50,809 nucleotides of DNA from a virus (Duplodnaviria; Caudoviricetes). Below are positions 6,197-23,081 of the stretch, piece by piece. The stretch is from positions 1 to 50,809 of IMG/VR virus record IMGVR_UViG_3300030372_000654; one strand, written 5' to 3'. Positions within the stretch are counted from its first letter, which is position 1, and each line of letters starts with the position of its first letter. The notes beneath the pieces are model-generated. The model saw only the letters and a list, made by a program, of their open reading frames with translations, was not told where the DNA came from and made no database searches. Position numbers and translations under genes: made by a program.

Positions 6197-6225
6197 ATTA
6201 TAGTAGTATTTGTAAAGTTTGTCAA
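6197..6225 (-). promoter_or_regulatory. Consensus sigma70 promoter for terS
   Basis: TTGACA (6225-6220), 17 bp, TATAAT (6202-6197); predicted +1 near 6190, the A of the ATG. Confidence 0.85.
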
Positions 6226-6262
6226 GCTTTTGTAAAGTTTTTTACTTTATTTCGTAAATGAC

Positions 6263-6291
6263 TTGACAAACCCGTAAAAAATGTGTACAAT
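6263..6291 (+). promoter_or_regulatory. Sigma70 promoter divergent from the terS promoter
   Basis: TTGACA, 17 bp, TACAAT with TGTG upstream of the -10. Confidence 0.75.
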
Positions 6292-7387: not shown

Positions 7388-7412
7388 ACCCCCGTAATTG
7401 GGGGTTTTTTTT
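7388..7412 (+). terminator. Rho-independent terminator
   Basis: ACCCCC-gtaatt-GGGGGT stem followed by a T run. Confidence 0.8.
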
Positions 7413-8360: not shown

Positions 8361-8542
8361 AATTTTATAGTAAAGAAAACTGTTATGATGCTTTGAGAGA
8401 AGCTGACATATCAACAGCTTGTCTACTGGATGATGTTGCAGTAAACCAAAGTAGCGAGATAAACCTAGAGGAATTACAAAAAGATATAGAGCATATTCTA
8501 AATCAAATACAAATAGCTCTCGATTATATTGAGAACGTTTAA
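8357..8542 (+). CDS. Acidic early hypothetical protein
   Basis: 61-aa ORF with GAGG RBS. Confidence 0.6.
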   Translation: MKFYSKENCYDALREADISTACLLDDVAVNQSSEINLEELQKDIEHILNQIQIALDYIENV

Positions 8543-8554
8543 ACGGAGTAAGAT

Positions 8555-8881
8555 ATGAGAGGAATAAAATGTAAACATTGTGGTTCGACTCAACTAACAG
8601 GTTACGTGTATGCGTTTAAGAATCCTGCGTTTAAAGGTTGGGTTAAGATTGGCAAGACAACTAACCTAAAAAGTAGACTGGGAAGTTTTAATACTGGTTC
8701 ACCTTTTAGAGATTTTGAATGTGTTTACTCTATTGATATACCTAAAACGAGACTTAAGTATCACGAGAAAAAAATTTTAAAAGAAACTTCATTACAAGCA
8801 GAAGAAAGTAAGGGAGAGTGGAGAAAAATATCTAATAAAAAGTTAATGGATATATTTAATTGTTACACAATTGTTACATAA
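8555..8881 (+). CDS. GIY-YIG superfamily protein (T5 orf172-like)
   Basis: GYVY..N....GWVKIGKT....RL..FNTGSP...E...GEW. Confidence 0.8.
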   Translation: MRGIKCKHCGSTQLTGYVYAFKNPAFKGWVKIGKTTNLKSRLGSFNTGSPFRDFECVYSIDIPKTRLKYHEKKILKETSLQAEESKGEWRKISNKKLMDIFNCYTIVT

Positions 8882-8903
8882 CTGTAACACAAATGTAACA
8901 TTC
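8860..8903 (+). promoter_or_regulatory. Four tandem 11-bp direct repeats, Pho-box/OmpR-family-like
   Basis: TTGTTACACAA TTGTTACATAA CTGTAACACAA ATGTAACATTC. Confidence 0.6.
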
Positions 8904-8917
8904 GTATGGTTAAATAG

Positions 8918-9335
8918 ATTTTGTAGTTAGGAGTGAGCCTTTGTAAAATCCAATCGAAGGAAGAATTACAAATACGCTATAGTAAGTGTTTGTAATAGAG
9001 AGGTTAAGGCTAAAAGTAAATGAGAACTAAACCACCATGCACTAACTACAAATTGTCCGAGTAAAGAAGGACACAGTTGCTAGACCTGTAAAACTAGCAC
9101 TTGATTAGGAATGGACAAGGCTAATACCCTTGACTGAGGAGGAGTGTAGATAGGAAGGTATCACAACTGAGTAAGTCTACTGTGCTACTAAAACAATGTG
9201 AGAGTTATTAGTAGGCAGAATCAGGTTTGCCGCCTAGTCATTTAAAGTGTTGACAGGCACTATAAAAACCGATAGTTATGTTGCTGTTGAAGGAGTTGGT
9301 AGTCATCTTCGGAACTAAAAAACTACCACCATTAA
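8918..9335 (+). ncRNA. Putative multi-domain structured non-coding RNA or long leader
   Basis: No long ORF; nested stems 8920-30/9042-52, 8936-41/9006-11, 8965-75/8986-96, 9054-73, 9078-99, 9102-09/9233-40, 9298-9327. Confidence 0.55.
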
Positions 9336-9356
9336 TTTTTAACAAGGAGGTATGAT

Positions 9357-9596
9357 ATGAGTAATAAATATAAATGGTTAGACCATAGTTATTTTGATTG
9401 CTTACACTTTGAATGGGATGGAACAGAGTTTGAAGTGCGAGTGACTAATGAGGTTGATGATATACCAGATGGTAAACTTAGGTTGGAAGTCTGGACTGTC
9501 GCTTATGATGAGGATGATGAGTGCATAGGCTTTGGAGAACACGTCAAAGAAAAGATATTAATGGATGGATTAAAGATACTTAAAAAGGAGGTATAA
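9357..9596 (+). CDS. Hypothetical protein
   Basis: AAGGAGGT RBS; 79 aa. Confidence 0.75.
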   Translation: MSNKYKWLDHSYFDCLHFEWDGTEFEVRVTNEVDDIPDGKLRLEVWTVAYDEDDECIGFGEHVKEKILMDGLKILKKEV

Positions 9597-9597
9597 T

Positions 9598-9789
9598 ATG
9601 GATTGGGTAGGAATAGCAATAAAAGAAACATTTGAGGGTATAGCTAGACAACAAAAGTTAAACGCTGAGTTGGAAGCTGAACGCTTATCTGGGTTGCAAG
9701 ATCAACATGAAGACGATGGACTTTGTACTTGTGGAGAACCTTTAGATGCTTGTCCAGATGCGTATGAACATTTATCGGGAGGTGTATGA
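9598..9789 (+). CDS. Hypothetical protein with a Cys/His zinc-binding-like tail
   Basis: AAGGAGGT RBS; CTCG...C..AYEH. Confidence 0.7.
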   Translation: MDWVGIAIKETFEGIARQQKLNAELEAERLSGLQDQHEDDGLCTCGEPLDACPDAYEHLSGGV

Positions 9790-9950
9790 TGAAAGTGTTT
9801 AGAATAAAAGCAGTATGTGATTTTATTGAGGTTGTTGAAGTTATAGCTGAAACAAAAGAACAAGCCGAGGAACTTTTATTTAGTGGAGATTACAAGGTGC
9901 TGAATGAAACTTATGAGAACCAAGACATCATATCAATTAAGGAGATATAA
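9786..9950 (+). CDS. 54-aa hypothetical protein
   Basis: GGAGG RBS; ATGA coupling; EVIAETKEQAEE motif. Confidence 0.65.
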   Translation: MMKVFRIKAVCDFIEVVEVIAETKEQAEELLFSGDYKVLNETYENQDIISIKEI

Positions 9951-9951
9951 T

Positions 9952-10182
9952 ATGAAAATAAAAGAAAAAGGTACATGGTATTCCAGAGTGGAGGAGATTT
10001 TATGTCGAGACTTTGGAAATATTTATAGTAGATTGACAGAGATAACACAAAAAATGATGTTGCAAGATGCTCATGTTTATGTCATAAATAGAAGAGACTT
10101 AGATTCTCTATCAGAGACAGACATAATTATGCTTGTAGAAGAGTTTGTGGCTTCGTGTGTTGCACGTTCTTTTAGGTACTAA
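9952..10182 (+). CDS. Hypothetical protein
   Basis: AAGGAG RBS before ATG 9952. Confidence 0.65.
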   Translation: MKIKEKGTWYSRVEEILCRDFGNIYSRLTEITQKMMLQDAHVYVINRRDLDSLSETDIIMLVEEFVASCVARSFRY

Positions 10183-10233
10183 GGGTATGTCCTACCTTTT
10201 AATTAACCCTATGCTTAAATTGAAGGAGAGTAA

Positions 10234-10305
10234 ATGGATATTTTGTTGTTTGTTTTAGTATTTTCTGTGTTATTATTTATATTAGACAGAAATGAAGATT
10301 TGTAA
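10234..10305 (+). CDS. 23-aa single-TM peptide
   Basis: AAGGAG RBS; MDILLFVLVFSVLLFILDRNEDL. Confidence 0.5.
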   Translation: MDILLFVLVFSVLLFILDRNEDL

Positions 10306-10322
10306 AACGATTGTCACATAAC

Positions 10323-10351
10323 TTTACTTTTGTTTAAAAATATGTTATAAT
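10323..10351 (+). promoter_or_regulatory. Sigma70 promoter
   Basis: TTTACT, 17 bp, TATAAT with extended TG. Confidence 0.6.
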
Positions 10352-10426
10352 CTTATAAATATTAAAACATTAATGAAAATAATAATTAATTATATTAATA
10401 ATTTATATTAAAATAGGATAAATTTT

Positions 10427-10555
10427 ATGGATGATTATATTAATAATCTTATAGATAATTATTATAAAGATGCAAACTTAATAGGAACATTACCTAATGA
10501 GTTTGATTATCTAAAAGATAAAGATGTGGTTAAAGCAGAGGAAGAAGATGATTGA
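10427..10555 (+). CDS. 42-aa acidic hypothetical protein
   Basis: AGGA RBS; MDDYINNLIDNYYKD... Confidence 0.45.
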   Translation: MDDYINNLIDNYYKDANLIGTLPNEFDYLKDKDVVKAEEEDD

Positions 10556-10793
10556 ATACAATGGTAAGAAAGTCACCCCAAAGGTGTATGCTAAACACCA
10601 AGTGTCTGATTACTTGATGAAGTTGTTTGATAATCCAGAGGTTCATATGGATAAGGACTTTGCAAACTGTACACCACGTGAACAAGATGAGATAATGAAT
10701 CAAGTTAGTTTGTTTGAGGACAGGATTCATAAGTTATTGGGTGTTAAATTTAAAAGTATAACAAGCAGTAGTAATTTTGAAAAATCTATATAG
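10548..10793 (+). CDS. Hypothetical protein
   Basis: GAGG RBS before ATG 10548 (MIEYNGKKVTPKVYAK). Confidence 0.7.
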   Translation: MIEYNGKKVTPKVYAKHQVSDYLMKLFDNPEVHMDKDFANCTPREQDEIMNQVSLFEDRIHKLLGVKFKSITSSSNFEKSI

Positions 10794-10801
10794 GAGATAG
10801 A

Positions 10802-11014
10802 ATGGAGTTTATAATAGCAGTAGTCGGTGTTGTATTTGTATTGACAGCTACAACCTTGTATATGTATTTGGTTGATGATGATAAGATTGACCCTTATATA
10901 CCATCGAAGATACAGCGAGGAAACTTCTGGGATGCAGAGACTAAACAATTTTACAAGTGGGATAAGTTAATGGAACTAAAAAAAGAAAGGGAGCAAAGTG
11001 ATACAATACATTGA
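10802..11014 (+). CDS. Small protein with an N-terminal TM helix
   Basis: AGGAG RBS; hydrophobic residues 3-24. Confidence 0.7.
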   Translation: MEFIIAVVGVVFVLTATTLYMYLVDDDKIDPYIPSKIQRGNFWDAETKQFYKWDKLMELKKEREQSDTIH

Positions 11015-11180
11015 TCCTAAAAATCATATAGGATTTCCATTACCTCCTGCAATGTTTCATCCCCACACATATTGTTGGGATATGCCGAAAGATGAAATGG
11101 CTTGTAAATTACTAGACATACCACGAAAATGTTTTGTTTGTGGTAATATAATAAAGGAGGATAATAATGACACAGTATAG
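10998..11180 (+). CDS. Small His/Cys-containing protein
   Basis: GGAG RBS, GTG start; HPH..C...C...CFVC. Confidence 0.6.
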   Translation: MIQYIDPKNHIGFPLPPAMFHPHTYCWDMPKDEMACKLLDIPRKCFVCGNIIKEDNNDTV

Positions 11181-11385
11181 TGAAGCTGTTGAACAGCAAA
11201 GAGAAATACTTGAGTTAGAAAAACAAGCTAAACAAATTGTAGCTATTGACACCAGATATAAAGATGGTATATGGTATCAACAAACTGTTGACTATGCCGA
11301 TGGTAAAAGAGTGACAGAGTATAGAGACAAACGTAAAACAACAGTAGTGGAGAATAGATATGGCGAAGACATGGCGAAAGACTGA
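11167..11385 (+). CDS. Hypothetical protein
   Basis: AAGGAGG RBS; 72 aa. Confidence 0.7.
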   Translation: MTQYSEAVEQQREILELEKQAKQIVAIDTRYKDGIWYQQTVDYADGKRVTEYRDKRKTTVVENRYGEDMAKD

Positions 11386-11509
11386 ACATACTCCTGCTAC
11401 TGGGGTTCGAGGTAAAAAGACAAGTCAAGGTAGAGGTAATGTTGCTTTCTCTACCATGAACAAGAATAAGAAAAGCAACTTTAAAAAATATCGAGGGCAA
11501 GGTAAATGA
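11360..11509 (+). CDS. 49-aa basic protein ending KKYRGQGK, not in the ORF track
   Basis: GGAG RBS; KKTSQG..STMNK..KKYRGQG motif recalled from marine phages. Confidence 0.75.
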   Translation: MAKTWRKTEHTPATGVRGKKTSQGRGNVAFSTMNKNKKSNFKKYRGQGK

Positions 11510-11631
11510 AAATAACAGCATGGAATATAGGTATCGTTTGGGAAGATGGTACTGAAGAAAATATAGGTGATGTACCTGATTGGGTAGCAACAAGAGTTGA
11601 TGAATTTTTAAATGAACTTGAGGAGGAATAA
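11506..11631 (+). CDS. 41-aa acidic hypothetical protein
   Basis: ATGA and TAATG coupling; MKITAWNIGIVWEDG... Confidence 0.65.
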   Translation: MKITAWNIGIVWEDGTEENIGDVPDWVATRVDEFLNELEEE

Positions 11632-11819
11632 TGAAACAGAAAATGATAACAGTAAAAATTCCAGAAAGAAATTTGGAATGGATTAAAAAGAACTATCGTA
11701 AATCTAGAAGTGGTGTGACTAGTTTGTTTGAGTATGGTGGTATAGATATCCAAGAGGTACATGCCATAGCAGACTTACTGTATCATCTTAACGAAGCATT
11801 TAATATTGAGGATGAGTAG
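11631..11819 (+). CDS. Hypothetical protein, possibly ribbon-helix-helix-like
   Basis: GAGGAGG RBS; MITVKIPE N-terminal strand. Confidence 0.6.
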   Translation: MKQKMITVKIPERNLEWIKKNYRKSRSGVTSLFEYGGIDIQEVHAIADLLYHLNEAFNIEDE

Positions 11820-12316
11820 TGAACATATTTTATTTTGATGAGTGTCCCATCATATCAGCAAAAGCACAGCCAGATAAGATGTTAGTCAAGATGCCATTAG
11901 AAACAGCACAGATGTTATGTACAGCACACCGAGAACTAGATGGTGATGATTATGCTGATAGTGTAGGACTTTACAAACGTGCATACTGGAATCACCCTTG
12001 CACTATCTGGGCAAGAGAATCAAGTGGTAATTATATGTGGCTACACAAACACTTCTTGGCTCTTGGTAGAGAATACACATACAGGTATGGTAAAGACCAT
12101 GCAAGTATAACTAAACTTGCCAAGCCTTTATTCAAGGTTCCAGATAATATAACTCGTGGTGATATAACACCATTAGCACAAGCTATGCCGGAAGAATATA
12201 AACATGAGGATCCAATCGTTGCATATCGTAGATATGTGATAAATGAAAAACACTATGCCAAGTGGGAGAAGAATCGATCTAAACCTACATGGTGGACTAC
12301 ACAGGAGGTAGCATAA
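11819..12316 (+). CDS. Pyrimidine-dimer DNA glycosylase / endonuclease V-like protein
   Basis: MNIF..D......A....DK..VKM.LE.AQML.TAH..NHPCTIWAR..EY.YRY.K.H..QAMP motifs. Confidence 0.8.
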   Translation: MNIFYFDECPIISAKAQPDKMLVKMPLETAQMLCTAHRELDGDDYADSVGLYKRAYWNHPCTIWARESSGNYMWLHKHFLALGREYTYRYGKDHASITKLAKPLFKVPDNITRGDITPLAQAMPEEYKHEDPIVAYRRYVINEKHYAKWEKNRSKPTWWTTQEVA

Positions 12317-12526
12317 ATGTATGTAAATAAAGAGTTTGTAATTAAAGGATTGCAAAATCACTTTCAAGGTTTAATTGATAGACATGTTGCAAATGCAATG
12401 ATATTAATTACTAACCCTGTTGGTGTGGCAGAACATCCAGATACTTTAGAAAGTATTGAAGTAGAACTTGGCAAGATTGCAGACTATGAAGATAAACTGT
12501 CAATTTTAAATAAATATTTTAACTAG
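12317..12526 (+). CDS. Conserved phage protein
   Basis: NPVGVAEHPD motif; AGGAGGT RBS. Confidence 0.75.
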   Translation: MYVNKEFVIKGLQNHFQGLIDRHVANAMILITNPVGVAEHPDTLESIEVELGKIADYEDKLSILNKYFN

Positions 12527-12534
12527 GAGACCAT

Positions 12535-13215
12535 ATGAAATATAATATAATAATAACTGCTGTCTTACTTGCATTAAGTGTAGCCATGTTTAATGCAGTT
12601 AATATCACAGCAGATAACATATCTAAAAACAAAGCAGGACTTAACAGATTAAATAAATCTTTCCTGTCTCTCAGCGAGGAGTTCGAAAGCGTAAATAAAA
12701 ATGCAGACTTGATACAGTCTACCAGAGAAAGCTATCGTAATTCTTTGATTGATTTATCAGATAGACTAGATGCAATGGATGAAACTAACTCAGAGATATA
12801 TCGTATCTTAAATGATTTAGATGAACGCTTGAACAAACCACCGGTTGCAACTGTAGTAATTGAAAAGTTTGTAGAGCCAGAGCCAGAACCTGTAGAGGAC
12901 TTAGGTGTCAATGCCGGTCTTGGAGTTCTTACCGGAACACATGTCATGGGACAGCCAGAGTTTATTGAGCCGACTTGTCCAAAGATAAGATCATCTAAAC
13001 CTTATGGTGATTACATAGAAAATATATCTATTAATAGAACTTTAAAGTTTACTGTAATCTATGATTTATTTCAAGGCAATGTCACCGATGTTAAATATGA
13101 TGGCAAGATACCTAACAAAGTTAAACAAGCTACCTTTAATTATGTAATGGATTTAGAGTTTGATAATCCTACTACAATCACAGGTTGCACATTACCTTTC
13201 ACAATTAACATTTAA
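12535..13215 (+). CDS. Membrane-anchored protein with TonB/TolA-like architecture
   Basis: N-terminal TM helix, coiled coil, EPEPEP proline linker, about 80-aa C-terminal alpha/beta domain with a Cys pair. Confidence 0.55.
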   Translation: MKYNIIITAVLLALSVAMFNAVNITADNISKNKAGLNRLNKSFLSLSEEFESVNKNADLIQSTRESYRNSLIDLSDRLDAMDETNSEIYRILNDLDERLNKPPVATVVIEKFVEPEPEPVEDLGVNAGLGVLTGTHVMGQPEFIEPTCPKIRSSKPYGDYIENISINRTLKFTVIYDLFQGNVTDVKYDGKIPNKVKQATFNYVMDLEFDNPTTITGCTLPFTINI

Positions 13216-13218
13216 GGG

Positions 13219-13247
13219 TTGCTTTTTATATCAATCTGTGTTATAAT
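13219..13247 (+). promoter_or_regulatory. Sigma70 promoter for the replication operon
   Basis: TTGCTT, 17 bp, TATAAT with extended TG. Confidence 0.7.
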
Positions 13248-13261
13248 ACAAGCTTATTAAG

Positions 13262-13462
13262 ATGAACTACTCAGCAGAAAGAGATCAGTACAATACAGAA
13301 CTACTTACTCGTGAAGAGTATAGAAAGTTTGGATTGTATATGACGGAACACTATCCAGATGTAGGGCATGTTGTTGATAAGTTAGACGATACATTTATTG
13401 TTCGTCTTGACGATACATCATTAACATTCTGGGAAGAGATACTCACTGCGATTAGGGATTAA
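13262..13462 (+). CDS. Hypothetical protein
   Basis: 66-aa ORF immediately after the promoter, no clear SD. Confidence 0.6.
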   Translation: MNYSAERDQYNTELLTREEYRKFGLYMTEHYPDVGHVVDKLDDTFIVRLDDTSLTFWEEILTAIRD

Positions 13463-13576
13463 TACGAAGGTATATTATAAGAAGTTTCGCCCTCCTTTTT
13501 AACTTATAATATCTACAAGTTTCCGGTCTTGTGCCAATAAAACCGGACATTTAATACAAACCAATGGAGGAAAAAT

Positions 13577-13990
13577 ATGTATGAGTATGTAACTGGTAAG
13601 GCAATGTGGGCTAATATCACATCGCCAAACACGAGGTTTCAACCTCACAAGTATGGGCTAACTGTTCTTACAGATGCAGATACTGCTACTAAACTTGAAG
13701 GCATAGGTCTTAATCAAGTTAGAGACAGATCAGGTCAGCCTAAATATGATGAACCTGCATTTACTTTTAGCAAAAGAGCTACAAGGAATGATGGTACTGC
13801 AAATGCTGCACCTAAACTTGTTGACACAGATGGTAATGATCTAGATGTTAGCGTAGGTAATGGTTCAGAAGTTGTTGTTAAGATTAAACCTTACAAGAAT
13901 GACTATGGTCAGTTTGCTGAACTCATGGCAGTAAAGGTTGAAAACTTAGTAGAATATGTTGAAGGTGATACAGACAACGAGGAATTTTAA
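13577..13990 (+). CDS. ssb: Single-stranded DNA-binding protein (T7 gp2.5-like)
   Basis: GKAMWA..PNT.F, P.LVD..G, VGNGS.V.V, L.AV.V..LVEY; acidic tail ending in Phe. Confidence 0.85.
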   Translation: MYEYVTGKAMWANITSPNTRFQPHKYGLTVLTDADTATKLEGIGLNQVRDRSGQPKYDEPAFTFSKRATRNDGTANAAPKLVDTDGNDLDVSVGNGSEVVVKIKPYKNDYGQFAELMAVKVENLVEYVEGDTDNEEF

Positions 13991-14287
13991 ATGATTATTA
14001 CTATAAATAATGATGATGGTAATACTTCTTTTGATGTCAACAACATTAGTGACGAGCAAATAAAGCAAGATGCTACTGTTATTGTACAGAAAGTTGGTAA
14101 CTTACAAGTTATCATAGAAGCTTTAGACTTTGCAAGTCGCACACATCGAGCAAACTTAGAAGAGTTACTTAAAGACAGAGACGAAGCTGTTGTTGAAACA
14201 GAACGTGCTAGAAATGATAAGGGTCAGTTTGTCGCAGACGACCCAGAAACTATCGAGGATGAATCTAAAGTAACAAAAGAAACATAG
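13991..14287 (+). CDS. Hypothetical protein
   Basis: 98 aa; RARNDKGQFVADDP motif near the C-terminus. Confidence 0.7.
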   Translation: MIITINNDDGNTSFDVNNISDEQIKQDATVIVQKVGNLQVIIEALDFASRTHRANLEELLKDRDEAVVETERARNDKGQFVADDPETIEDESKVTKET

Positions 14288-14304
14288 TCTTGAGGAGGGC
14301 TAAC

Positions 14305-15975
14305 ATGAATGATACAACTTGGCATAAGTTGAAACAACCCTGTCCACTTTGCACTAGCAGTGATGCTGTAGGAGTCAATGAAGATGGCTCCGCAAAGTGT
14401 TTCAGTTGTGGAGAATTTATGCCTAACTATGAACAAGCATGTAAAGGAAAAACTATGACACAATCACAACCAATAGAAACTAAACAACCGGACAATGTAT
14501 CTGAGGGTAACTTCATTGCATTGACTGACAGAAAAATATCTCAAGCAACCGCACAGAAGTTTGGGGTCAAAGCTGTTCAAGACCTAAAGGGTCAGGTTAT
14601 TAAACATTTCTATCCATATTATAATGGACATGAATTATCAGCTACTAAGTGTAGAAACTCTGTAACAAAAGATTTCTTTGTACAAGGTAGTTATAATGAG
14701 ACTGGACTATTTGGTCAGCAGTTGTTTAAGGGTGGTAAGTATGTCACCATAACCGAAGGGGAGTGTGATGCTATGGCAGCTTACGAACTACTTGGTAGTA
14801 AGTGGGCTGTGGTATCCATCAAGCGTGGTGCACAAGGTGCAGTAAGAGACATCAAAGAAAGCTTGGAGTTCTTTGACGACTTTGAAAACGTGATCGTTGC
14901 TTTTGATAATGATAAAGCAGGAAAGGATGCAGCAGTTAAAGTTGCAAGACTTTTCAAGCCCGGAAAGGCTAGGATACTCACACTTCCCAATGGGTTTAAA
15001 GACCCTAACGATATGCTTAAGTCTAACCGACATAAGGACTTTGTTGAAGCTTGGTGGGCTAGTAAAGTTTATACACCCTCTGGTGTTATTAATGTTACTG
15101 AGCAACGTGACAAGTTTCATAATCGTGAGAAGAAACAAAGTATACCTTATCCTTGGGAAGGACTAAACAAAAAGCTATATGGTTTGAGACAAGGAGAACT
15201 GGTAACTCTTACCGGTGGAACAGGACTAGGTAAGTCTAGTGTCACCAGAGAGTTAGAACATTGGTTGGTCAAACAAACTACAGACAATGTAGGTATCATT
15301 GCACTAGAAGAAGACTGGAGAAGAACCATTGATGGGATCTTATCTATTGAAGCTAATGCTAGATTATATATTGACCAAGAACGTGAAAAGTTTTCTAGAG
15401 AAGAACTCGATAAGATGTTTGATATCTTGTATGATGGTGAGAATAAAAACAGAGTATGGGTTCATTCACACTTTGGAACCAATGACATTGATGATATCTT
15501 TACCAAGCTACGATTTATGATTATTGGCTGTGACTGTAAATGGGTGGTTGTAGATCACTTACATATGTTAGTTAGTGCTGTACATGAAGGCGATGAGAGA
15601 CGAGCTATTGATTCTATTATGACTAGACTTAGAAGTTTAGTAGAGGAAACAGGAGCAGGTATTATTCTAGTATCTCATTTACGTAGAGTAGATGGTAACA
15701 AAGGACACGAGAATGGTATTGAGGTAAGCCTATCTCATTTACGTGGGTCTAATAGTATTGGTCAGTTATCAGATTGTGTTATTGCATTAGAACGTAATCA
15801 ACAGTCAGATGATTTTGATGAATCAAGAACTACAAAATTACGAATTCTTAAATCAAGATATACAGGTGATGTTGGTATGGCAGCTAGAGTTATCTATGAC
15901 ATTGAAACCGGCAGACTATCTGAACTTACTAATGAAGACATAGAGTTTGATAACGTTGGTGAGGAAGGATTTTAA
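14305..15975 (+). CDS. DNA primase-helicase (T7 gp4-like)
   Basis: Zn finger CPLC..CFSC, TOPRIM EGECD and FDND, Walker A GTGLGKS, VVDHL, LRGS; GAGGAGG RBS before ATG 14305. Confidence 0.95.
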   Translation: MNDTTWHKLKQPCPLCTSSDAVGVNEDGSAKCFSCGEFMPNYEQACKGKTMTQSQPIETKQPDNVSEGNFIALTDRKISQATAQKFGVKAVQDLKGQVIKHFYPYYNGHELSATKCRNSVTKDFFVQGSYNETGLFGQQLFKGGKYVTITEGECDAMAAYELLGSKWAVVSIKRGAQGAVRDIKESLEFFDDFENVIVAFDNDKAGKDAAVKVARLFKPGKARILTLPNGFKDPNDMLKSNRHKDFVEAWWASKVYTPSGVINVTEQRDKFHNREKKQSIPYPWEGLNKKLYGLRQGELVTLTGGTGLGKSSVTRELEHWLVKQTTDNVGIIALEEDWRRTIDGILSIEANARLYIDQEREKFSREELDKMFDILYDGENKNRVWVHSHFGTNDIDDIFTKLRFMIIGCDCKWVVVDHLHMLVSAVHEGDERRAIDSIMTRLRSLVEETGAGIILVSHLRRVDGNKGHENGIEVSLSHLRGSNSIGQLSDCVIALERNQQSDDFDESRTTKLRILKSRYTGDVGMAARVIYDIETGRLSELTNEDIEFDNVGEEGF

Positions 15976-17705
15976 TGGACTTAGTATTTGACATAGAAAC
16001 TGATGATCTTCATGCTACAAAAGTATGGTGTATCGTTGCCCAGAATCCTGACTCAGGAGAAATATTTAAGTTTCCACCTAGTAAGCTAGAAGAAGGGTAT
16101 CAGTTTTTAACAACAGCCGATAGGTTGATTGGTCATAATATCATTGGCTTTGATATACCTATGGTAGAAAAGTTTGGTAATGTAGACCTAAGTAGCAAAA
16201 AGATTATTGATACTCTGGTACTATCTAGACTATTTAATCCAACACGTGATGGTGGTCACAGTCTTGAAACTTGGGGTTACAAGTTAGGTTATCCAAAGAT
16301 TGAGTTTGAAGATTATCTTAACTACTCTACTGATATGTTAAACTATTGTGTACGGGATGTACAGTTAAACACTAGAGTATTACAAGAACTTCGTAAAGAA
16401 TCTAAAGGTTTCAAACCAGAATGCATTGACCTTGAACAAGGTGTAGCCAAGATTATGAAACAACAAGAGCAAGATGGTTTTGCTTTTGATATGCAATCAG
16501 CTTTAAGTTTGTTAGCAGAACTCAGAGAAAAGATGCAACAAATAGAAGATGAAGTTCATTCTACATTCAAACCTAAATGGGTAGATACAAAACAAGTGAC
16601 ACCTTACATTAAGAAAGATGGTAATCTATCTAAACGTGGGCTTACCAATGAAGAGTATCAACGATGTTTAGATACTGATAACTTTAATCCTTTTATGAGA
16701 CAAACTTTACAAGAGTTTAATCTTGGCTCTCGTAAACAGATTGGAGAATATCTTATAGACTTTGGTTGGAAGCCAGATAGATTTACACCTACTGGTCAAC
16801 CTATTGTAGATGAGAAAACATTATCTAAGATAACTCACATCCATGAAGCAAAACTTATAGCAGATTTTTTATTACTGCAAAAGCGTATAGCTCAGATTGA
16901 TTCATGGGTAGAAGCGGTCAAAGATGATGGCAGAATACATGGGTTCGTTATTCCTAATGGAACTATTACCGGAAGAATGACACATAGAAACCCCAATGTT
17001 GCACAGGTTCCCTCAGTTCACAGTCCTTATGGTAAAGAATGTAGATCATGTTGGACTGTAGAAGATGGATATAAACTTGTAGGTGTAGATGCAAGTGGAC
17101 TAGAGCTACGCATGTTAGCACATTACATGGATGATAAGGAGTATATAAATGAAATTATTAATGGAGACATTCACACAACTAACCAAAACTTTGCTGGACT
17201 TAAATCAAGAGATCAGGCTAAAACTTTCATATATGCCCTCGTGTACGGAGCAGGAGATGAAAAGATTGGAAGCATTATTAAAGGAAGTAGATCAGAAGGT
17301 AAACAGTTGCGAGAACGCTTTCTTAGTAGTCTCCCAACATACAAGTCTCTTAAAGAACGAGTTGACAGAGCAGCTTCAAAAAATTTCCTCAAAGGATTAG
17401 ATGGTAGGAAGTTATATATAAGAAATAAACATGCAGCTTTAAACACATTACTTCAAGGAGCAGGAGCAATCTTAATGAAAAAAGCCTTAGTCAACTTAGA
17501 TAGTTTGTTAAGACTTAATGCAATTGATTATAGATTTGTTGCTAACATCCATGATGAATGGCAAATAGAAGTAAGAGAATCTCAGGCAGACTTTGTAGGA
17601 GAAATGGCAGTTAAAAGTATTGTAGAATCAGGTGAACATTTTAATCTACGCTGTCCAATGGATGGCGAATATAAAGTAGGAGGTAATTGGAGTGACACAC
17701 ATTAA
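15975..17705 (+). CDS. polA: DNA polymerase family A (T7 gp5-like) with 3'-5' exonuclease
   Basis: FDIETD, GHNIIGFD, TGRM, DASGLELR, RDQAKTFIYALVYG, NIHDE. Confidence 0.95.
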   Translation: MDLVFDIETDDLHATKVWCIVAQNPDSGEIFKFPPSKLEEGYQFLTTADRLIGHNIIGFDIPMVEKFGNVDLSSKKIIDTLVLSRLFNPTRDGGHSLETWGYKLGYPKIEFEDYLNYSTDMLNYCVRDVQLNTRVLQELRKESKGFKPECIDLEQGVAKIMKQQEQDGFAFDMQSALSLLAELREKMQQIEDEVHSTFKPKWVDTKQVTPYIKKDGNLSKRGLTNEEYQRCLDTDNFNPFMRQTLQEFNLGSRKQIGEYLIDFGWKPDRFTPTGQPIVDEKTLSKITHIHEAKLIADFLLLQKRIAQIDSWVEAVKDDGRIHGFVIPNGTITGRMTHRNPNVAQVPSVHSPYGKECRSCWTVEDGYKLVGVDASGLELRMLAHYMDDKEYINEIINGDIHTTNQNFAGLKSRDQAKTFIYALVYGAGDEKIGSIIKGSRSEGKQLRERFLSSLPTYKSLKERVDRAASKNFLKGLDGRKLYIRNKHAALNTLLQGAGAILMKKALVNLDSLLRLNAIDYRFVANIHDEWQIEVRESQADFVGEMAVKSIVESGEHFNLRCPMDGEYKVGGNWSDTH

Positions 17706-17979
17706 TCACACACAAGATAATAGAAAAGGAGACATGGCTGAGTTTTACGCAGTCACTTGGCTTTGGGATAATGGATATGAAGTATTTAAAAACTGTGGCT
17801 GCACTGGTCCAGTAGACTTAATTGCTACAAAGGATGGTAAGACAACTTTGATAGATGTAAAAACAAAATCAGGTCGATCAGGTAGGACTAGAAGTATTGA
17901 GCAGTTACAGTTAGATGTAAAGATATTAAACTATAATCCAGAGACTCGGAAGTTAAATTTTGTAAAACATCAAAAATAA
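17692..17979 (+). CDS. PD-(D/E)XK endonuclease, resolvase-like
   Basis: KGDMAE..WL...GYEVF..VDLI...IDVKT. Confidence 0.75.
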   Translation: MTHINHTQDNRKGDMAEFYAVTWLWDNGYEVFKNCGCTGPVDLIATKDGKTTLIDVKTKSGRSGRTRSIEQLQLDVKILNYNPETRKLNFVKHQK

Positions 17980-17980
17980 T

Positions 17981-18853
17981 ATGCCTAAATCTAAAAAGAC
18001 TCTTGACACATTAGTCGAAGATATATATAATAAGATAGGTGTACTTGCTGATGGTAAGCATATTGATCTAGACCCAGAGACTATAGACCAGTTTGGTGAG
18101 TCTATGAAAGAGATACTTTACAAGTGGTCTCACCCTGAACCAAGAGGTAAAGCTACTTTACGTATGTCTAACATAGGTAGAAAGTCACGTCAACTTTGGT
18201 TTGATATGAAGTCGGAAGACACTGCTGAGAAGATGCCACCTTCTTTGTTTATTAAATTTTTGTATGGACATTTACTTGAAGAGATAGTTCTATTTCTTAT
18301 TAAGCTATCTGGACATAAAGTTACCAGCGAACAAAAAGAAATAAAAGTATCCGGTATTAAAGGACACATGGATTGTGTTATAGACGGTGAGGTTGTGGAT
18401 ATTAAAACAGCTTCTGGATTTTCATTTAAAAAATTCAAAGATGGAACTCTTGCAGAGAATGATATGTTTGGATATATGGCTCAACTTGCCGGATATGAAG
18501 CAGCCGAGGGTACTGACAAAGGAGGTTTCTTAGCCTTAAATAAAGAGTCTGGTGAGTTAGCTTTATATCGACCAGATAACTTTGATAAACCTAATATCAA
18601 GAAAAAGATTTCTAATATTAAAAAGGCTGTCAAGTTAGCTACACCACCTGATCTATGTTATAGCCCAGTTCCAGATGGTAAGTCTGGTAACATGCAGCTA
18701 CCTAGAGAGTGTGTTTATTGTAGACATAAGTTTGAATGTCATAAAGATGCCAATGAAGGTAAAGGACTTCGAGTATTTAAGTATGCTAATGGATTAAAAT
18801 ACTTAACCCTAACACCTAAACCGCCTAAAGTTATAGAGGTAACACAAGTATGA
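17981..18853 (+). CDS. PD-(D/E)XK exonuclease, Cas4/RecB-like
   Basis: RMSNIG, GHLLE, GHMD..VDIKT, Y..QL..Y, C-terminal CxxC-x5-C. Confidence 0.85.
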   Translation: MPKSKKTLDTLVEDIYNKIGVLADGKHIDLDPETIDQFGESMKEILYKWSHPEPRGKATLRMSNIGRKSRQLWFDMKSEDTAEKMPPSLFIKFLYGHLLEEIVLFLIKLSGHKVTSEQKEIKVSGIKGHMDCVIDGEVVDIKTASGFSFKKFKDGTLAENDMFGYMAQLAGYEAAEGTDKGGFLALNKESGELALYRPDNFDKPNIKKKISNIKKAVKLATPPDLCYSPVPDGKSGNMQLPRECVYCRHKFECHKDANEGKGLRVFKYANGLKYLTLTPKPPKVIEVTQV

Positions 18854-19092
18854 GTGGAAGAAGATCAAAAAAATTAAGAAGAAAAGCAGAGGACTTACTT
18901 ATCGCATGGTTGAGAACAATGGTTCCAGAAGGAGAGGATACATCTAAAATCAGTAGAAAGAATCTTGATGAGTTCTTACCAGAACAAACTCATATTTTTG
19001 CTAACAATAAATATTTACTTAGTGCCTACAGTTTACGTTGGTTCTATAAACAAATGAAACAAAACCCAAATATAAAATTAAAGGATATATAA
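18850..19092 (+). CDS. Hypothetical protein
   Basis: 80-aa translationally coupled ORF. Confidence 0.7.
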   Translation: MSGRRSKKLRRKAEDLLIAWLRTMVPEGEDTSKISRKNLDEFLPEQTHIFANNKYLLSAYSLRWFYKQMKQNPNIKLKDI

Positions 19093-19358
19093 TGAATTAT
19101 AAATTTAATGAAGGACGATTAATACAAGAACTACAGTCTTATATTGATGAGACATATGGTGAGCATTATGCTTCAGATAAATATCAAGCTACAGATATTA
19201 TCATTGACTCTGGACATGGAGAAGGTTTTGCTTTAGGTAACATTATGAAGTATGCAAAACGATATGGAAATAAAGATGGAAAGAACAGAAAAGACTTGCT
19301 AAAAATCTTACATTATGGTATAATAATGCTTAACGTACACGATACAGAGAACTCATAA
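19092..19358 (+). CDS. DUF3310 / T7 gp1.7-like protein, putative nucleotide kinase
   Basis: HY...GF..GNI.KY..RY..K....DL.K..HY. Confidence 0.75.
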   Translation: MNYKFNEGRLIQELQSYIDETYGEHYASDKYQATDIIIDSGHGEGFALGNIMKYAKRYGNKDGKNRKDLLKILHYGIIMLNVHDTENS

Positions 19359-21253
19359 TGGTAGAAGATAAAGTCGGTATCAAGGAATACCTTGGTATCA
19401 AAATAAATTATAGTAATGAAAAAAATTTAGATAAGTTTAGCCTTGATACTCTCAAGGATAGATACTTATGGGAGAATGAAACACATGCACAAGAAGCATT
19501 TGCCAGAGCATCAGTCTTCGCAGCCACTTACAAAGGTCACACAGATTTTGAATTGGCTCAGAGACTTTATCACTACAGTTCCAGTTGTTGGTTCATGTTT
19601 AGCACTCCTATACTTAGTAACGGGGGAACAAGTCGTGGTCTTCCTATTAGCTGTTTTCTCAATTATGTACCTGATAGCAGGGATGGTTTATCTGCTCACT
19701 ATGACGAAAATATTTGGTTGGCAAGTTCGGGTGGAGGTATTGGTGGATTTTGGGGAGATATTCGTAGTAATGGTATTTCTACTACTCACGGTAGCAAGTC
19801 TACTGGTTCAATCCCTTTCATCCATGTAGTAGATTCTCAAATGTTAGCCTTCAATCAAGGCACGACTAGACGTGGTTCTTATGCTGCTTACATGGATATA
19901 TCTCATCCGGAGATAGAAGAGTTTATTAACATGCGTAAAGAATCTGGTGGAGATATTAATCGTAAGAATCTTAATCTTCACAATGGTATAAACATCACTA
20001 ATGATTTTCTCAAAGCTGTTGAAGACGATGCAGACTTTAGATTGATTGACCCTAAGACTAACGAACCTACAAAGATTGTAAATGCTAGAGACTTGTGGTG
20101 GCAGATCATTAATGCAAGAGCAGAGACAGGTGAGCCATACATGATTAATATAGATACATGTAACGAAGCATTACCCAAAGAACAAAAAGATTTAGGATTA
20201 GAAATCAAACAGAGCAATCTTTGTTCTGAGATTACTTTACCTACTAACGAAGAACGAACAGCAGTATGTTGTTTGTCTTCTGTAAACTTAGAATACTTTG
20301 ATGATTGGAGTGAGAATCCTCTGTTCATTGATGATTTAATTACCATGCTTGACAACGTTCTTCAACATTATATTGATAACGCTGTTGACACAGATAACTT
20401 AGGAGAGTATAATGCAAACTTTAAAAGATTTCAAAAACATATCAAGCCCGGTAAAGAAGGCTTTACTAAATCTGCGTACTCGGCTTACCGAGAAAGGTCG
20501 TTGGGTTTGGGGGCGATGGGATTCCATTCGTACTTACAGGCACACAATATTCCTTTCGAAGGTATATTCGCTACGGGATTTAATTACAAAGCGTTTAAGC
20601 ACATTAAGAAACATTCAACTAGAGCAACTGAACGACTTGCTGATGAACGTGGTGAGTCACCTGATATCAGTGGTAGTGGTCGTAGGAATGCTCATCTACT
20701 CGCTGTTGCTCCTAACGCTTCTTCTAGTATCATATGTGGTGGGACATCTCCTTCGATTGAGCCATACAGGGCTAATGCTTATACGCACAAAACTTTATCC
20801 GGATCATTCCAAGTAAAAAATAAATATCTTGAAGAGGTATTACAAGAAAAAGGATTAAAGAAGGCTGAGTTAAATGATATATGGAAAGACATTGCAGGTA
20901 AAGATGGCTCTGTACAACATCTTGATATACTAACAGATGAAGAAAAAGAAGTGTTTAAAACTGCTAATGAAATAGATCAGATATGGATTATAGAACATGC
21001 ATCTAAACGACAAGAGTTTATTTGTCAAGCACAGTCAGTTAATTTATTCTTTACACTTCCTAAAGCTACAGAGCCACAGGAAGTACATGATGAATACATG
21101 CAGTACGTCAATGATGTACACTGGTATGGTATGAACAAACTTAAATCTTTATACTACTTTAGGTCTAATGCTGCTCGTAGTGTAGAAAATGTAAACACCA
21201 AAGTTCAGCGTATTAAGTTAGACGATGCTGAATGTATTGCTTGTGAGGGATAG
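19358..21253 (+). CDS. nrdA: Ribonucleotide reductase class I alpha subunit, no ATP cone
   Basis: STPILSN, ISCF, QGTTRRG, SNLCSEI, APNASSS, SLYY, C-terminal CIAC. Confidence 0.95.
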   Translation: MVEDKVGIKEYLGIKINYSNEKNLDKFSLDTLKDRYLWENETHAQEAFARASVFAATYKGHTDFELAQRLYHYSSSCWFMFSTPILSNGGTSRGLPISCFLNYVPDSRDGLSAHYDENIWLASSGGGIGGFWGDIRSNGISTTHGSKSTGSIPFIHVVDSQMLAFNQGTTRRGSYAAYMDISHPEIEEFINMRKESGGDINRKNLNLHNGINITNDFLKAVEDDADFRLIDPKTNEPTKIVNARDLWWQIINARAETGEPYMINIDTCNEALPKEQKDLGLEIKQSNLCSEITLPTNEERTAVCCLSSVNLEYFDDWSENPLFIDDLITMLDNVLQHYIDNAVDTDNLGEYNANFKRFQKHIKPGKEGFTKSAYSAYRERSLGLGAMGFHSYLQAHNIPFEGIFATGFNYKAFKHIKKHSTRATERLADERGESPDISGSGRRNAHLLAVAPNASSSIICGGTSPSIEPYRANAYTHKTLSGSFQVKNKYLEEVLQEKGLKKAELNDIWKDIAGKDGSVQHLDILTDEEKEVFKTANEIDQIWIIEHASKRQEFICQAQSVNLFFTLPKATEPQEVHDEYMQYVNDVHWYGMNKLKSLYYFRSNAARSVENVNTKVQRIKLDDAECIACEG

Positions 21254-21254
21254 T

Positions 21255-21398
21255 ATGGATTGTTGGCATTGTGGAACAGAATTAATATGGGGTGGAGATC
21301 ACGATATAGAAGATGAAAACGATGAATACATTATGGAAACTAATTTAAGTTGCCCCAAATGTAACTCTTTTGTAATAGTATATTTACCAAAGGATTAA
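21255..21398 (+). CDS. 47-aa zinc-ribbon protein
   Basis: MDCWHCGTELIWGGDHD...LSCPKC. Confidence 0.7.
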   Translation: MDCWHCGTELIWGGDHDIEDENDEYIMETNLSCPKCNSFVIVYLPKD

Positions 21399-21399
21399 T

Positions 21400-21579
21400 A
21401 TGAAACAAGAAGAATTTACAAATGTATTTAGTCAGAAATTTTCTGGCTTTACAAGTAGGATGTGGTTAGATTATTGTGATGAAAATAATAATCCATTCGC
21501 AAAAACAAAAGATTATGCAGGATACGTAATTGAAAATTTTAAATATTTAGTTAAGAAATTTAACAAGGAGAACACATGA
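21400..21579 (+). CDS. 59-aa hypothetical protein
   Basis: AAGGA RBS; RMWLDYCDE motif; ATGA coupling. Confidence 0.65.
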   Translation: MKQEEFTNVFSQKFSGFTSRMWLDYCDENNNPFAKTKDYAGYVIENFKYLVKKFNKENT

Positions 21580-21890
21580 GTGGTTTTATGAAATCACATT
21601 TTGAAGGCTACGCAGAAGATGGTGCATCTCATGTTTATTTTTCAGAAGGAATGTACATTGTAAAATCAATAGATGATTATGGTAAAGCTCACTATGGCAT
21701 GGTAAGTGAAGAACAGTTAAGGTCTCCAGATTGGAAACCACCGGACTATGAAAAACGTTATCAAGATTTAAAAAAACATTATGATAAAAAACTAGAGCTA
21801 CACAACAGAAAAAAAGAACTAAATACACTAAAGATAGAGATAGATTCTATCGAAAAATTATTAAAAAAATTTAACAAGGAAAAAACATGA
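21576..21890 (+). CDS. Hypothetical protein with a C-terminal coiled coil
   Basis: 104-aa ORF flanked by a 30-bp imperfect direct repeat. Confidence 0.7.
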   Translation: MSGFMKSHFEGYAEDGASHVYFSEGMYIVKSIDDYGKAHYGMVSEEQLRSPDWKPPDYEKRYQDLKKHYDKKLELHNRKKELNTLKIEIDSIEKLLKKFNKEKT

Positions 21891-22870: not shown

Positions 22871-23081
22871 TAAGAATGAAGCAAACTTGGTAAGTTTTAA
22901 AGTGCTTCTTACACGCAACAATGATATAGTTACAGAGTTTAGTATGCTACCAGAGGATATGGTTAATGAAATATTCCCTCCAGATGAGAGAGATATTATT
23001 AAAACTATCCTCCGGAATGGTAAGCATAAGATGGGAGACTTACATAACTTCTTTCAAAGAGAGTTAAATGTTTTAAAGTAA
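22863..23081 (+). CDS. Hypothetical protein, last gene of the plus-strand arm
   Basis: GGAG RBS before ATG 22863 (MVNKNEA). Confidence 0.65.
   Translation: MVNKNEANLVSFKVLLTRNNDIVTEFSMLPEDMVNEIFPPDERDIIKTILRNGKHKMGDLHNFFQRELNVLK

Follow-up and report, generated by a model that had tools for sequence, protein, structure and literature searches.

Among the structured RNAs carried by phages, the closest described counterparts of the element reported here are the orphan leader motifs of marine phages and metagenomes, such as the manA and wcaG RNAs and the DUF2815 motif, which lie between genes in the orientation of these genes, are supported by covariation and have no defined function. Further comparison is possible with the junction riboswitch aptamers, for example THF-I; with the put RNAs of phage HK022 and the EAR RNAs of Bacillus, which are structured RNAs situated next to promoters or inside operons and are independent of the gene that follows; and with compact viral three-way junctions that serve as physical modules attached to or alongside a viral nucleic acid, such as phi29 packaging RNA (pRNA) and the exonuclease-resistant RNA (xrRNA) of flaviviruses, the latter locked by a pseudoknot. 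The element under study, referred to as RNA-1, occupies positions 8917 to 9053 on the + strand of the IMG/VR virus record IMGVR_UViG_3300030372_000654, the whole of which (50,809 bp, estimated completeness 98%) was analysed and is called the window in this report. RNA-1 is one of a new, uncatalogued family of compact, folded RNAs that uncultured marine podophages carry; the kind of element is a known one, and comparison of its relatives indicates that its fold, on the + strand, is a three-way junction locked by a pseudoknot.

The resemblance of RNA-1 to the orphan leaders and riboswitch candidates of marine phages appears to be at most one of kind, and not one of membership. Like them it is phage-borne, intergenic, co-oriented with genes, supported by covariation and without a defined function, but searches with the Rfam models of these motifs gave no sequence or structure match to it, and its fold and motifs are its own; the only DUF2815 RNA match (15.7 bits against a cut-off of 41.2) fell over a ribosome-binding region and not over RNA-1. 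Junction riboswitch aptamers share with RNA-1 their size, a closing helix P1, a variable peripheral hairpin, numerous joint nucleotides that are unpaired and do not vary, a junction-locking pseudoknot and a place in the 5' untranslated region (UTR), whereas RNA-1 has no match to them in Rfam, no recurrent expression platform that could be recognized and no metabolic theme common to the genes downstream. What it does possess, as riboswitches generally do, is a conserved, covariation-supported, aptamer-like fold in a 5' UTR position. The put RNA is made of two stem-loops, in contrast to the junction and pseudoknot of RNA-1, downstream of which terminators are rare, and a put-type arrangement was not found. 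There is no sequence relation to xrRNA or to phi29 pRNA, the family of the latter gave no Rfam match, and the phage of the window has an ordinary large terminase.

RNA-1 lies in a gap of 475 nucleotides (nt) at 8882-9356, the longest stretch of the plus-strand gene arm (which spans ~6.3 to 23 kb) without a + strand open reading frame (ORF) of at least 40 amino acids (aa); an initial annotation of the window, made from its sequence alone, had called the region the largest ORF-free gap of this arm apart from the terminus region. All of the stems which that annotation listed within 8918-9335 are present in the sequence, including three that lie outside RNA-1 (TGTCC 9054-9058 with GGACA 9069-9073, TGCTAG 9078-9083 with CTAGCA 9094-9099, and GGTAGT 9298-9303 with ACTACC 9322-9327). 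The anatomy of its "domain 1", which corresponds to RNA-1, can now be drawn from the relatives. Three helices (P1; P2, continued by the variable P3; and P4) meet at the junction. P1 pairs 8920-8930 (TTTGTAGTTAG) with 9042-9052 (CTAACTACAAA) and leads into the joint J1/2 (GAGUGAG, 8931-8937), the closing GAG of which is invariant and within which G8933-U8934-G8935 form the 5' strand of the pseudoknot. P2 (CCUU 8938-8941 with AAGG 9006-9009) had been described as a helix of six pairs, AGCCTT 8936-8941 with AAGGCT 9006-9011; these are present in the window, and only the four pairs CCUU/AAGG are conserved. An asymmetric internal loop follows (UGUAAAAU, 8942-8949, opposite UU 9004-9005), in which (U/C)(G/A)UAAAA(U/A/G) and then CC are kept in all lineages. 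The arm P3 (8950-9003) carries in the window the 11-bp hairpin already recognized (8965-8975 with 8986-8996), which proved to be a window-specific filling, since the same site in relatives contains differing fillings of 8 to 57 nt between a conserved UCC and a conserved GGUU. The A-rich joint J2/4 (CUAAAA, 9010-9015) connects P2 to the P4 hairpin (9016-9040), which consists of the stem GUA 9016-9018 / UGC 9038-9040 and a 19-nt loop, AAUGAGAACUAAACCACCA, and is separated from the 3' strand of P1 by one unpaired A. The P4 loop measures 19-20 nt across the family, and its core AU(G/A)AG(A/U)ACUA(A/U)ACC is invariant, of which the part AG(A/U)ACUA(A/U)ACC was fixed by the patterns used to collect homologues. 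The pseudoknot pairs 8933-8935 with C9033-A9034-C9035 in the 3' part of this loop; both it and the P4 stem had been overlooked in the first description.

Evidence for this fold comes mainly from an alignment (A2) of 63 distinct sequences, to which the following counts refer, apart from those for the pseudoknot. Standard pairs fill 94.7% of its 1234 paired cells, 17 of the 20 pairs have changed on both sides and 180 cells are compensatory; none of 500 shuffles reached either the pairing or the covariation score, and partners slid by 1-3 columns paired in 28-48% of cases. Since A2 was fitted to the model it favours the structure, and a first MAFFT alignment (A1) and a reading by eye of the divergent matches agree with it. 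Double changes were found at 10 of the 11 pairs of P1 (95.5% of cells paired), at three of the four of P2 (97.6%; variants CUAC/GUAG, CCAC/GUGG and CUAU/AUAG) and at all three stem pairs of P4 (for example CAUG/CAUG, GCAG/CUGC and UGCAGU/ACUGCA). The pseudoknot helix is paired in 90.3% of cells and covaries at two of its three pairs, the partners occurring as GUG/CAC, GCG/CGC, AAG/CUU, UCG/CGA, CCG/CGG, ACG/CGU and GAG/CUC; the exceptions are one relative with a single C-A mismatch (L168; L-numbers denote homologue contigs or loci of relatives, and G001, G002 and G003 relative genomes) and three lineages with longer joints in which the register appears to be shifted. In divergent lineages P1, P2 and P4 are wholly rewritten yet still pair (P1, for instance, as UUUUACAAGG/CCUUGUAAAA), while the unpaired motifs are unchanged, and the alignment as a whole presents a fixed frame into which hairpins of unlike sequence and length have been inserted at one point, P3. 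Covariation, a test of which had been proposed at the outset, is strong in domain 1. Its minimum free energy also lies well below chance on the + strand (z = -3.78, with 0 of 200 shuffles as good) and less so on the - strand (z = -2.75); structure beyond chance is shown for domain 1 and for two small-pseudoknot stems, and not for the whole gap or for domain 2, all described below except the first. The middle pair of P4 is U-G in 44 of the 63 sequences, and because of such frequent U-G pairs only the + strand fits; this agrees, as does the finding that every match of the covariance model lies on the gene strand, with the previous remark that G-U pairs favour the plus strand. The remark that domains 1 and 2 both start with TTAGGA(G/A)TG is true of the window and is not upheld by the homologues of either domain.

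The same comparison bears on the possibility that the conserved block is an element at the level of DNA, either a replication origin or a recombination "linker" between gene modules, with an incidental RNA fold. In support of this one could cite the position of the block at mosaic boundaries between variable genes and always near replication genes, and its adjoining phased heptamers in the window and repeats of AGGACGCAA in L256. Selection on duplex DNA does not, however, predict compensatory changes that keep four helices plus a pseudoknot while the sequence is rewritten, or G-U pairs confined to one strand, and an arm of variable length such as P3 is typical of RNA. We consider this explanation the least probable of all, and hardly credible.

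Homologues of RNA-1 were collected in several steps. Scanning for an exact pattern of the 5' block yielded 57 viral contigs, from which 54 complete elements were obtained, that of the window included (43 distinct, 93-139 nt). The covariance model, R1, recognizes a single copy in the window, at 8917-9053 (112.2 bits, E 1e-22), and also matched two far more divergent lineages at 36-40 bits. A degenerate pattern drawn from the invariant motifs matched 96 viral contigs and at least 120 metagenome contigs, and had no match in 185,579 prokaryote genomes (one genome per species); R1 confirmed 79 of the 80 viral loci and all 80 of the metagenome loci that were fetched. Altogether RNA-1 is present in more than 200 contigs and is represented by 124 distinct sequences of 90-139 nt, from marine viral and metagenome contigs, many of which share samples and are not independent. 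It is restricted to phages. One copy per genome is found in each of three near-complete (96-98%) genomes, those of the window, G001 and G002, and none was matched by R1 in the whole genome of the Pelagibacter phage HTVC103P.

The initial annotation could not assign the region to a family, and a search of the whole window with the 4227 covariance models of Rfam 15 indeed gave no match at the gathering score. At E values up to 10 there were only sub-threshold chance matches (to DUF2815, as above, PsrR1, STnc130 and WT1-AS_5) and one substretch had none; nine divergent homologue loci, searched at E up to 1, likewise gave sub-threshold chance matches only and no catalogued match to RNA-1. Blastn of 8500-9700 against 50,697 phage records found no match, and a limited full-text search of the literature brought up no description of RNA-1. 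In view of the whole of these results we are almost certain that RNA-1 represents a real RNA family.

Small conserved ORFs, against which the initial annotation had cautioned, do not account for the region. No ORF of 25 aa or longer exists in 8882-9237, the lengths of RNA-1 elements differ by non-multiples of three, and each candidate frame is broken in relatives. A 14-codon ORF from an ATG at 9021 loses this ATG in L090 and L098, a 25-aa ORF at 9278-9355 is interrupted by indels of 2 and 3 nt in L069, and a two-codon mini-gene (UUG-UAA) behind an AGGAG inside RNA-1 is not kept, its place being taken by CUG, CCG or UUA in other lineages. By these comparisons RNA-1 is not protein-coding.

Some indication of what RNA-1 might do comes from its surroundings. 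Upstream, at 8861-8900, are four TGTWACA heptamers (two TGTTACA and two TGTAACA) that start at 8861, 8872, 8883 and 8894, with an exact spacing of 11 bp; two are direct and the following two inverted, and they make up the only such cluster in a genome that has 17 sites in total against 15.3 expected. TGTCACA or TGACACA is found at the same place in relatives. The array would be operator- or iteron-like and takes in the -35 position of a putative RNA-1 promoter, at which it probably serves as operator for a transcription factor of the phage. The window's own candidate for an extended -10 element is TGgTTAAAT (8907-8915, + strand), the hexamer of which, TTAAAT, falls below the filter that we applied (five of six matches, or four of six with an upstream TG) and was not counted. 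Among 89 distinct upstream contexts, 37 have a -10 element that passes this filter and stops 4-5 nt (in one case 9 nt) short of the first pair of P1, compared with a mean of 7.9 and a maximum of 14 in shuffles, and some of the upstream promoters are complete (TTGACA-17-TATAAT). On this basis the predicted transcription start falls in the opening bases of P1.

On the downstream side, RNA-1 is succeeded in 70 of 80 loci, at a distance of 13-303 nt, by an ORF on the same strand that has a Shine-Dalgarno sequence, and in several lineages the ribosome-binding site is 13-32 nt after P1. The start of the primase-helicase gene lies 28-32 nt after P1 in several contigs of one lineage. The order in G001 (49.9 kb) is RNA-1, an 84-aa ORF, a 137-aa ORF like the window's putative single-stranded-DNA-binding protein (SSB), primase-helicase and PolA; in the window RNA-1 stands at the head of a ~14-kb block of co-oriented genes, and the replication block begins a few small genes after it. 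Because a promoter is found just upstream in many lineages and a ribosome-binding site 13-32 nt downstream in others, and because RNA-1 is always co-oriented with the genes, it can be seen as a 5' leader on a messenger RNA (mRNA), in preference to the sponge, antitoxin mimic, antiterminator or ribozyme suggested in the initial annotation. Our leading reading, which we hold with about even confidence, is that RNA-1 is a cis-acting 5' leader RNA of the middle/replication operon of these phages; that it acts in cis is what we infer. It would be transcribed as part of an mRNA, in many lineages as its very 5' end, and would head the transcript of the early-middle (DNA-replication) gene block, where as a sensor or a protein-binding leader it would act in cis to set the expression or the stability of the genes that follow. 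An added effect might be to stabilise the 5' end.

The invariant unpaired positions speak for regulation of this kind. Approximately 35 unpaired positions are invariant (GAG, UGUAAAAUCC/GGUU, AUAAAA and AUGAGAACUAAACC), ~20 of them fixed by the collecting patterns, and they are clustered at the joints, in the internal loop and in the P4 loop; for this reason a sensor or regulatory leader, riboswitch-like or protein-binding, is favoured. Conserved unpaired content of this sort is to be expected of a binding pocket or docking surface, rather than of a mere stabilising hairpin. That the cis leader senses a ligand in the manner of a riboswitch seems doubtful at present, and we regard it as similarly unlikely that RNA-1 is the aptamer of a phage-only riboswitch class which senses a small molecule that reports the state of the infected cell. 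The signal in such a case might be a nucleotide-pool metabolite, an alarmone or a defence-signalling nucleotide, and the switch would time the expression of replication genes by way of lineage-specific platforms, which could be pseudoknot modules farther downstream, a U-tract behind P1, or an anti-Shine-Dalgarno helix that overlaps it. Where a gene lies close behind, P1 is commonly followed at once by a U-rich tract, and a U8 tract lies between RNA-1 and the next gene in L259 and L249.

Sequencing runs recorded as RNA are compatible with transcription of the RNA-1 region and are not proof of it. Parts of 8500-9700 are represented in 24 runs (23 recorded as RNA) from 17 studies, labelled as marine, seawater or viral metagenomes, at a maximum of 0.27 of the sampled words, and contigs assembled from the metatranscriptomes of three studies (four runs) cover parts of 8919-9330. 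Two of these contigs, one of 231 nt (9008-9236, one difference) and one of 277 nt (8997-9274, 17 differences), run from the 3' half of RNA-1 into domain 2. In two of the four runs contigs were found over 8919-9295 only, and none over the flanking ORFs; being assembled contigs, with flanks that differ among relatives, they say nothing of the level of expression, of transcript ends or of the parts left uncovered.

A role in RNA cleavage may be considered at this point. RNA-1 could be a small self-cleaving ribozyme, or a structure recognized by a host RNase, that cuts the polycistronic transcript before the replication genes. Its compact fold of junction and pseudoknot with invariant joint nucleotides would suit a ribozyme, and its intergenic, gene-co-oriented occurrence in varied gene contexts is that of the known small ribozymes of phages and metagenomes. 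On the other hand, no Rfam ribozyme family matched even at E up to 10, the ~35 invariant unpaired positions exceed what small ribozymes usually need, there is nothing upstream to remove where RNA-1 begins at the start of transcription, and contigs such as those just described cannot reveal cleavage ends. We judge this explanation to be highly improbable.

The leader reading has several points to contend with, which together weigh against it. The runs provide assembled contigs, which carry no transcript ends, strand or level and which might derive from DNA carried over into the libraries. About half of the contexts are without a promoter directly upstream, other RNA modules preceding RNA-1 there. 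The ORFs downstream belong to at least 15 unrelated families, so that no metabolic theme is available from which to guess a ligand. Canonical terminators within 350 nt downstream were found in one of 91 contexts (L256), and an anti-Shine-Dalgarno helix overlapping P1 in L216 only among the seven gene-adjacent lineages that were folded; no expression platform common to the family was found. The homologues were collected with sequence patterns, and the invariance at pattern positions is in part a result of this. In L256 a strong terminator closes a unit that comprises promoter, RNA-1 and further modules and contains no gene, and this unit resembles a free-standing small RNA gene. Finally, the 52-kb genome G002 (L366) carries a near-identical RNA-1 (114 bits; G002:C1:28771-28886) before a different replisome, composed of Prim-Pol/DUF3987, an SF2 helicase and a PD-(D/E)XK nuclease. 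It follows that the module moves between phage types, and its presence before so unlike a replisome fits a self-sufficient, possibly trans-acting module equally well.

Some of these points favour the view that RNA-1 is a free-standing noncoding RNA that acts in trans on a protein or RNA of the host or phage, whether as decoy, sponge or cofactor. It would have a promoter of its own or be excised from a polycistronic transcript, and its position near replication genes would be mere synteny. The promoter-like -10 directly upstream in 37 of the 89 contexts, the gene-free unit of L256 with its canonical terminator, the presence of RNA-1 in phages with unrelated replisomes and before 15 or more unrelated genes, and the very high conservation of its unpaired sequence, as might be expected for a surface that contacts protein or RNA, all fit this view. 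Against it count the rarity of canonical terminators downstream (one of the 91 contexts) and the ribosome-binding site that follows P1 by 13-32 nt in many lineages; no processing sites are known, and complements in the window to the core of the P4 loop and to the internal loop occur at or near chance level (7 against 5.0 expected and 11 against 6.1, respectively). An RNA acting in trans is in our estimate unlikely, to be taken seriously nonetheless.

Alternatively, RNA-1 might be a processive antitermination RNA by analogy with HK022 put or Bacillus EAR, the nascent fold of which would bind the RNA polymerase at work and take it past the many structured modules that lie between the genes of the long middle operon. 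Its nearness to promoters in many lineages, its indifference to the identity of the next gene, its place at the head of the ~14-kb block, the U8 tracts of L259 and L249 and the strong terminator of L256 could be so interpreted. On the other side, downstream canonical terminators are as rare as stated above, and a pattern scan of 9000-24000 found six terminator-like sites on the + strand, five of which belong to the arm; in each of the six the stem is weak or the T tail poor. The junction and pseudoknot, moreover, are unlike the two hairpins of put. We rate antitermination as quite unlikely, and a cis-acting leader remains the reading that we favour.

Strongly conserved and situated where the replication genes begin, RNA-1 is a candidate control point of infection timing in a very abundant virus-host system, the phage group being common in ocean samples (more than 596 viral contigs by primase-helicase scan). 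Its new fold of junction and pseudoknot is available in more than 120 natural variants, and is small enough for probing, crystallography, cryo-electron microscopy and ligand screens.

The remainder of the gap must be considered separately from RNA-1. The initial annotation had regarded 8918-9335 as one multi-domain RNA of about 420 nt. A scan of IMG/VR with the primase-helicase found at least 596 relatives, the best 80 of which were fetched with up to 10 kb of flank and compared with the gap by blastn. Its first ~190 nt, which comprise the promoter region and domain 1, were matched in ~20 contigs (70-85% identity, indels within the match), its last ~110 nt in another, overlapping set of contigs, and its middle (domain 2) in only two. 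The flanking genes on both sides vary among the contigs that share pieces of the gap, and the parts occur in relatives in differing combinations and orders. Because the pieces recur in different sets of contigs with differing flanking genes, the 420 nt are not one inherited unit, and as an evolutionary unit the single long RNA has to be given up: its parts recombine among relatives, and domain 2 is known in four other versions only. The term "cluster", which was also used for it, is apt. Beyond RNA-1 the gap is a chain of independent modules, namely a hairpin, a recurrent H-type pseudoknot in two copies, a conserved spacer and the less common domain 2, which the relatives shuffle freely. Reusable RNA modules thus make up the seemingly empty gaps of these phages, and R1 together with the model of the small pseudoknots, R2, could mark them in annotation.

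One might still suppose that the whole of 8918-9335 is a single RNA with interdependent domains, seeing that all its parts are on one strand with no ORF between them, that the 231- and 277-nt contigs bridge the 3' half of RNA-1 through domain 2, and that domain 2 directly follows RNA-1 in L199, L315 and L339. Against this, the modules are separate or reordered in relatives, where domain 2 accompanies RNA-1 in only four other distinct versions, no long-range pairing between the domains was found, and the gap folded as a whole is no better than shuffles (z = -1.65 on the + strand, with 3 of 100 shuffles as good, and z = -1.71 on the - strand). A single RNA of this length is very unlikely.

The first of the further modules, a small hairpin at 9054-9073 (+ strand; UGUCC-GAGUAAAGAA-GGACA), is found after RNA-1 in many relatives, in which its loop varies from 10 to ~61 nt. 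One compensated stem (UAUCC/GGAUA) and one lineage with a U-G wobble suggest a conservation of the hairpin that is weak but consistent.

The small H-type pseudoknots have the layout of a stem S1 of 3-7 bp, a UU linker, a stem S2 of 6 bp, 0-3 nt, the return strand of S1, an A-rich loop ending in AAAA and the return strand of S2. Three + strand copies in the window are recognized by R2. Copy 1 (9070-9102; 18.3 bits, E 0.02) has S1 formed by ACAG 9073-9076 with CUGU 9086-9089 and S2 by (U)GCUAG 9078-9083 with CUAGC(A) 9094-9099, and modules identical to it precede ribosome-binding sites in relatives. Copy 2 (9289-9331; 27.6 bits, E 1e-4) has S1 formed by GAAGG 9289-9293 with UCUUC 9306-9310, S2 by GGUAGU 9298-9303 with ACUACC 9322-9327, and an A-rich loop 3. 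Copy 3 (13513-13551) scores 40.1 bits, being itself a seed of R2, and lies 26 nt before the ORF 13577-13990, which has 33% identity (E 1e-20) to gp36 of HTVC103P, annotated as "putative ssDNA-binding protein". Eleven related contigs also have a module of the copy-3 class, at ~740-780 nt ahead of their primase-helicase match. Over 81 sources (the window and 80 loci) R2 finds 60 copies, 37 of them distinct; in these S2 is 97.7% paired with double changes at four of its six pairs, so that this module too shows covariation, and an S1 helix of at least 3 bp (3 bp in three) could be drawn in 37 of 37 by a lax script run without a control, its sequences being wholly different between classes.

The small pseudoknots, and not RNA-1, call to mind the translational operator of T4 gene 32, in which an H-type pseudoknot precedes an unstructured A/U-rich leader. 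They share with that operator the H-type fold and the A-rich loop 3, followed by a UAAUUUUAA-like sequence and a Shine-Dalgarno sequence, and the gene 32-type architecture (architecture only) is found in 13513-13551 before the putative SSB ORF. They differ from it in preceding many unrelated genes, and there is no sequence similarity or Rfam match. As a rule the modules are found immediately ahead of an A/U-rich stretch and a ribosome-binding site, and they also precede RNA-1 itself; their occurrence before unrelated genes argues against a strictly autogenous role for the SSB. The preQ1-I riboswitch has a short P2 and a ligand-pairing C in loop 2, compared with an S2 of 6 bp and a loop 2 of 0-3 nt in the small pseudoknots; a preQ1-I reading was discarded after 9066-9110 and 8800-9450 gave no Rfam match at E up to 10.

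Domain 2 (9102-9240, + strand) is a conserved noncoding module with a closing stem (TGATTAGG 9102-9109 with CCTAGTCA 9233-9240) and three or four hairpins, the structure of which is unproven. It is known in five distinct versions including that of the window. Its folding energy is that of shuffled sequence (z = 0.02). An RNAalifold model derived from the same five sequences pairs 97.9% of cells with two compensatory pairs and several wobble-compatible changes, and this number of compensatory pairs, being reached by 131 of 500 shuffles, is not significant; the covariation anticipated for the region as a whole was in this part not obtained. Nor is domain 2 a diverged copy of domain 1, a second R1 match being absent from the window; the two are not paralogues. 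A conserved spacer module (9241-9288, + strand) comes next and is nearly unchanged in several relatives. Its TTGACA (9250-9255) was considered as part of a promoter and rejected on inspection of the sequence, there being no acceptable -10 at 16-18 nt. Copy 2 of the small pseudoknot is followed by an A/U-rich stretch, the Shine-Dalgarno sequence AAGGAGG (9344-9350) and the ATG at 9357 (9332-9359 altogether, + strand) of the 79-aa ORF at 9357-9596 (+ strand) which borders the gap downstream.

Further modules were seen near RNA-1 in particular lineages. A recurrent sequence absent from the window, ACUCACCAGNCCCUAGAGUGUGAGUAUAAAGCUAGRRUAGGG, stands directly after RNA-1 in L209, L190 and L302 and before it in L170, and it can be drawn as an H-type pseudoknot (CUCAC/GUGAG plus CCCUA/UAGGG). 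A divergent lineage (L176, L223 and L247, the last being G003) has long hairpins on both sides of RNA-1, each followed by a repeated motif, CACACGACA(G/A)TTTTAA, which may be a punctuation, promoter or terminator signal of the G003 phage. In L256, the terminator is followed (~110-260 nt downstream of RNA-1) by a GC-richer stretch with at least five iteron-like AGGACGCAA repeats, which may mark a replication origin.

The phage of the window encodes an SU10-type portal, a large terminase, a T7-like primase-helicase (14290-15975), a family-A DNA polymerase, a ribonucleotide reductase and a Cas4-like exonuclease, and ARAGORN found no tRNA or tmRNA genes in the window. By DNA polymerase its nearest cultured relatives are the Pelagibacter phages HTVC103P, HTVC104P and HTVC115P (53% identity). 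The gap is bordered upstream by a 108-aa ORF (8555-8881) with a T5orf172/MUG113 domain, which we take to be related to the GIY-YIG nucleases. This ORF was seen in a subset of relatives only (the window, L058, L064, L068 and L072), and because the others carry unrelated genes at this place, it looks like a mobile insertion adjoining the RNA module. Farther upstream, at 7388-7405, the first small + strand genes are followed by a strong hairpin resembling an intrinsic terminator (ACCCCCGTAATTGGGGGT with a T run), and judging by it the RNA-1 promoter may open a later transcription unit. Perfect or near-perfect TTGACA-17-TATAAT promoters are present in the window at 6197-6291, 18003-18031 and 20385-20413. 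Those at 6197-6291 are a divergent pair at 6.2 kb, where the two gene arms part; the promoter at 18003-18031 is at the start of the Cas4-like exonuclease ORF; and that at 20385-20413 lies inside the ORF for the large subunit of ribonucleotide reductase (19358-21253), directly ahead of a 134-aa ORF (20412-20816) that is nested there in a different frame.

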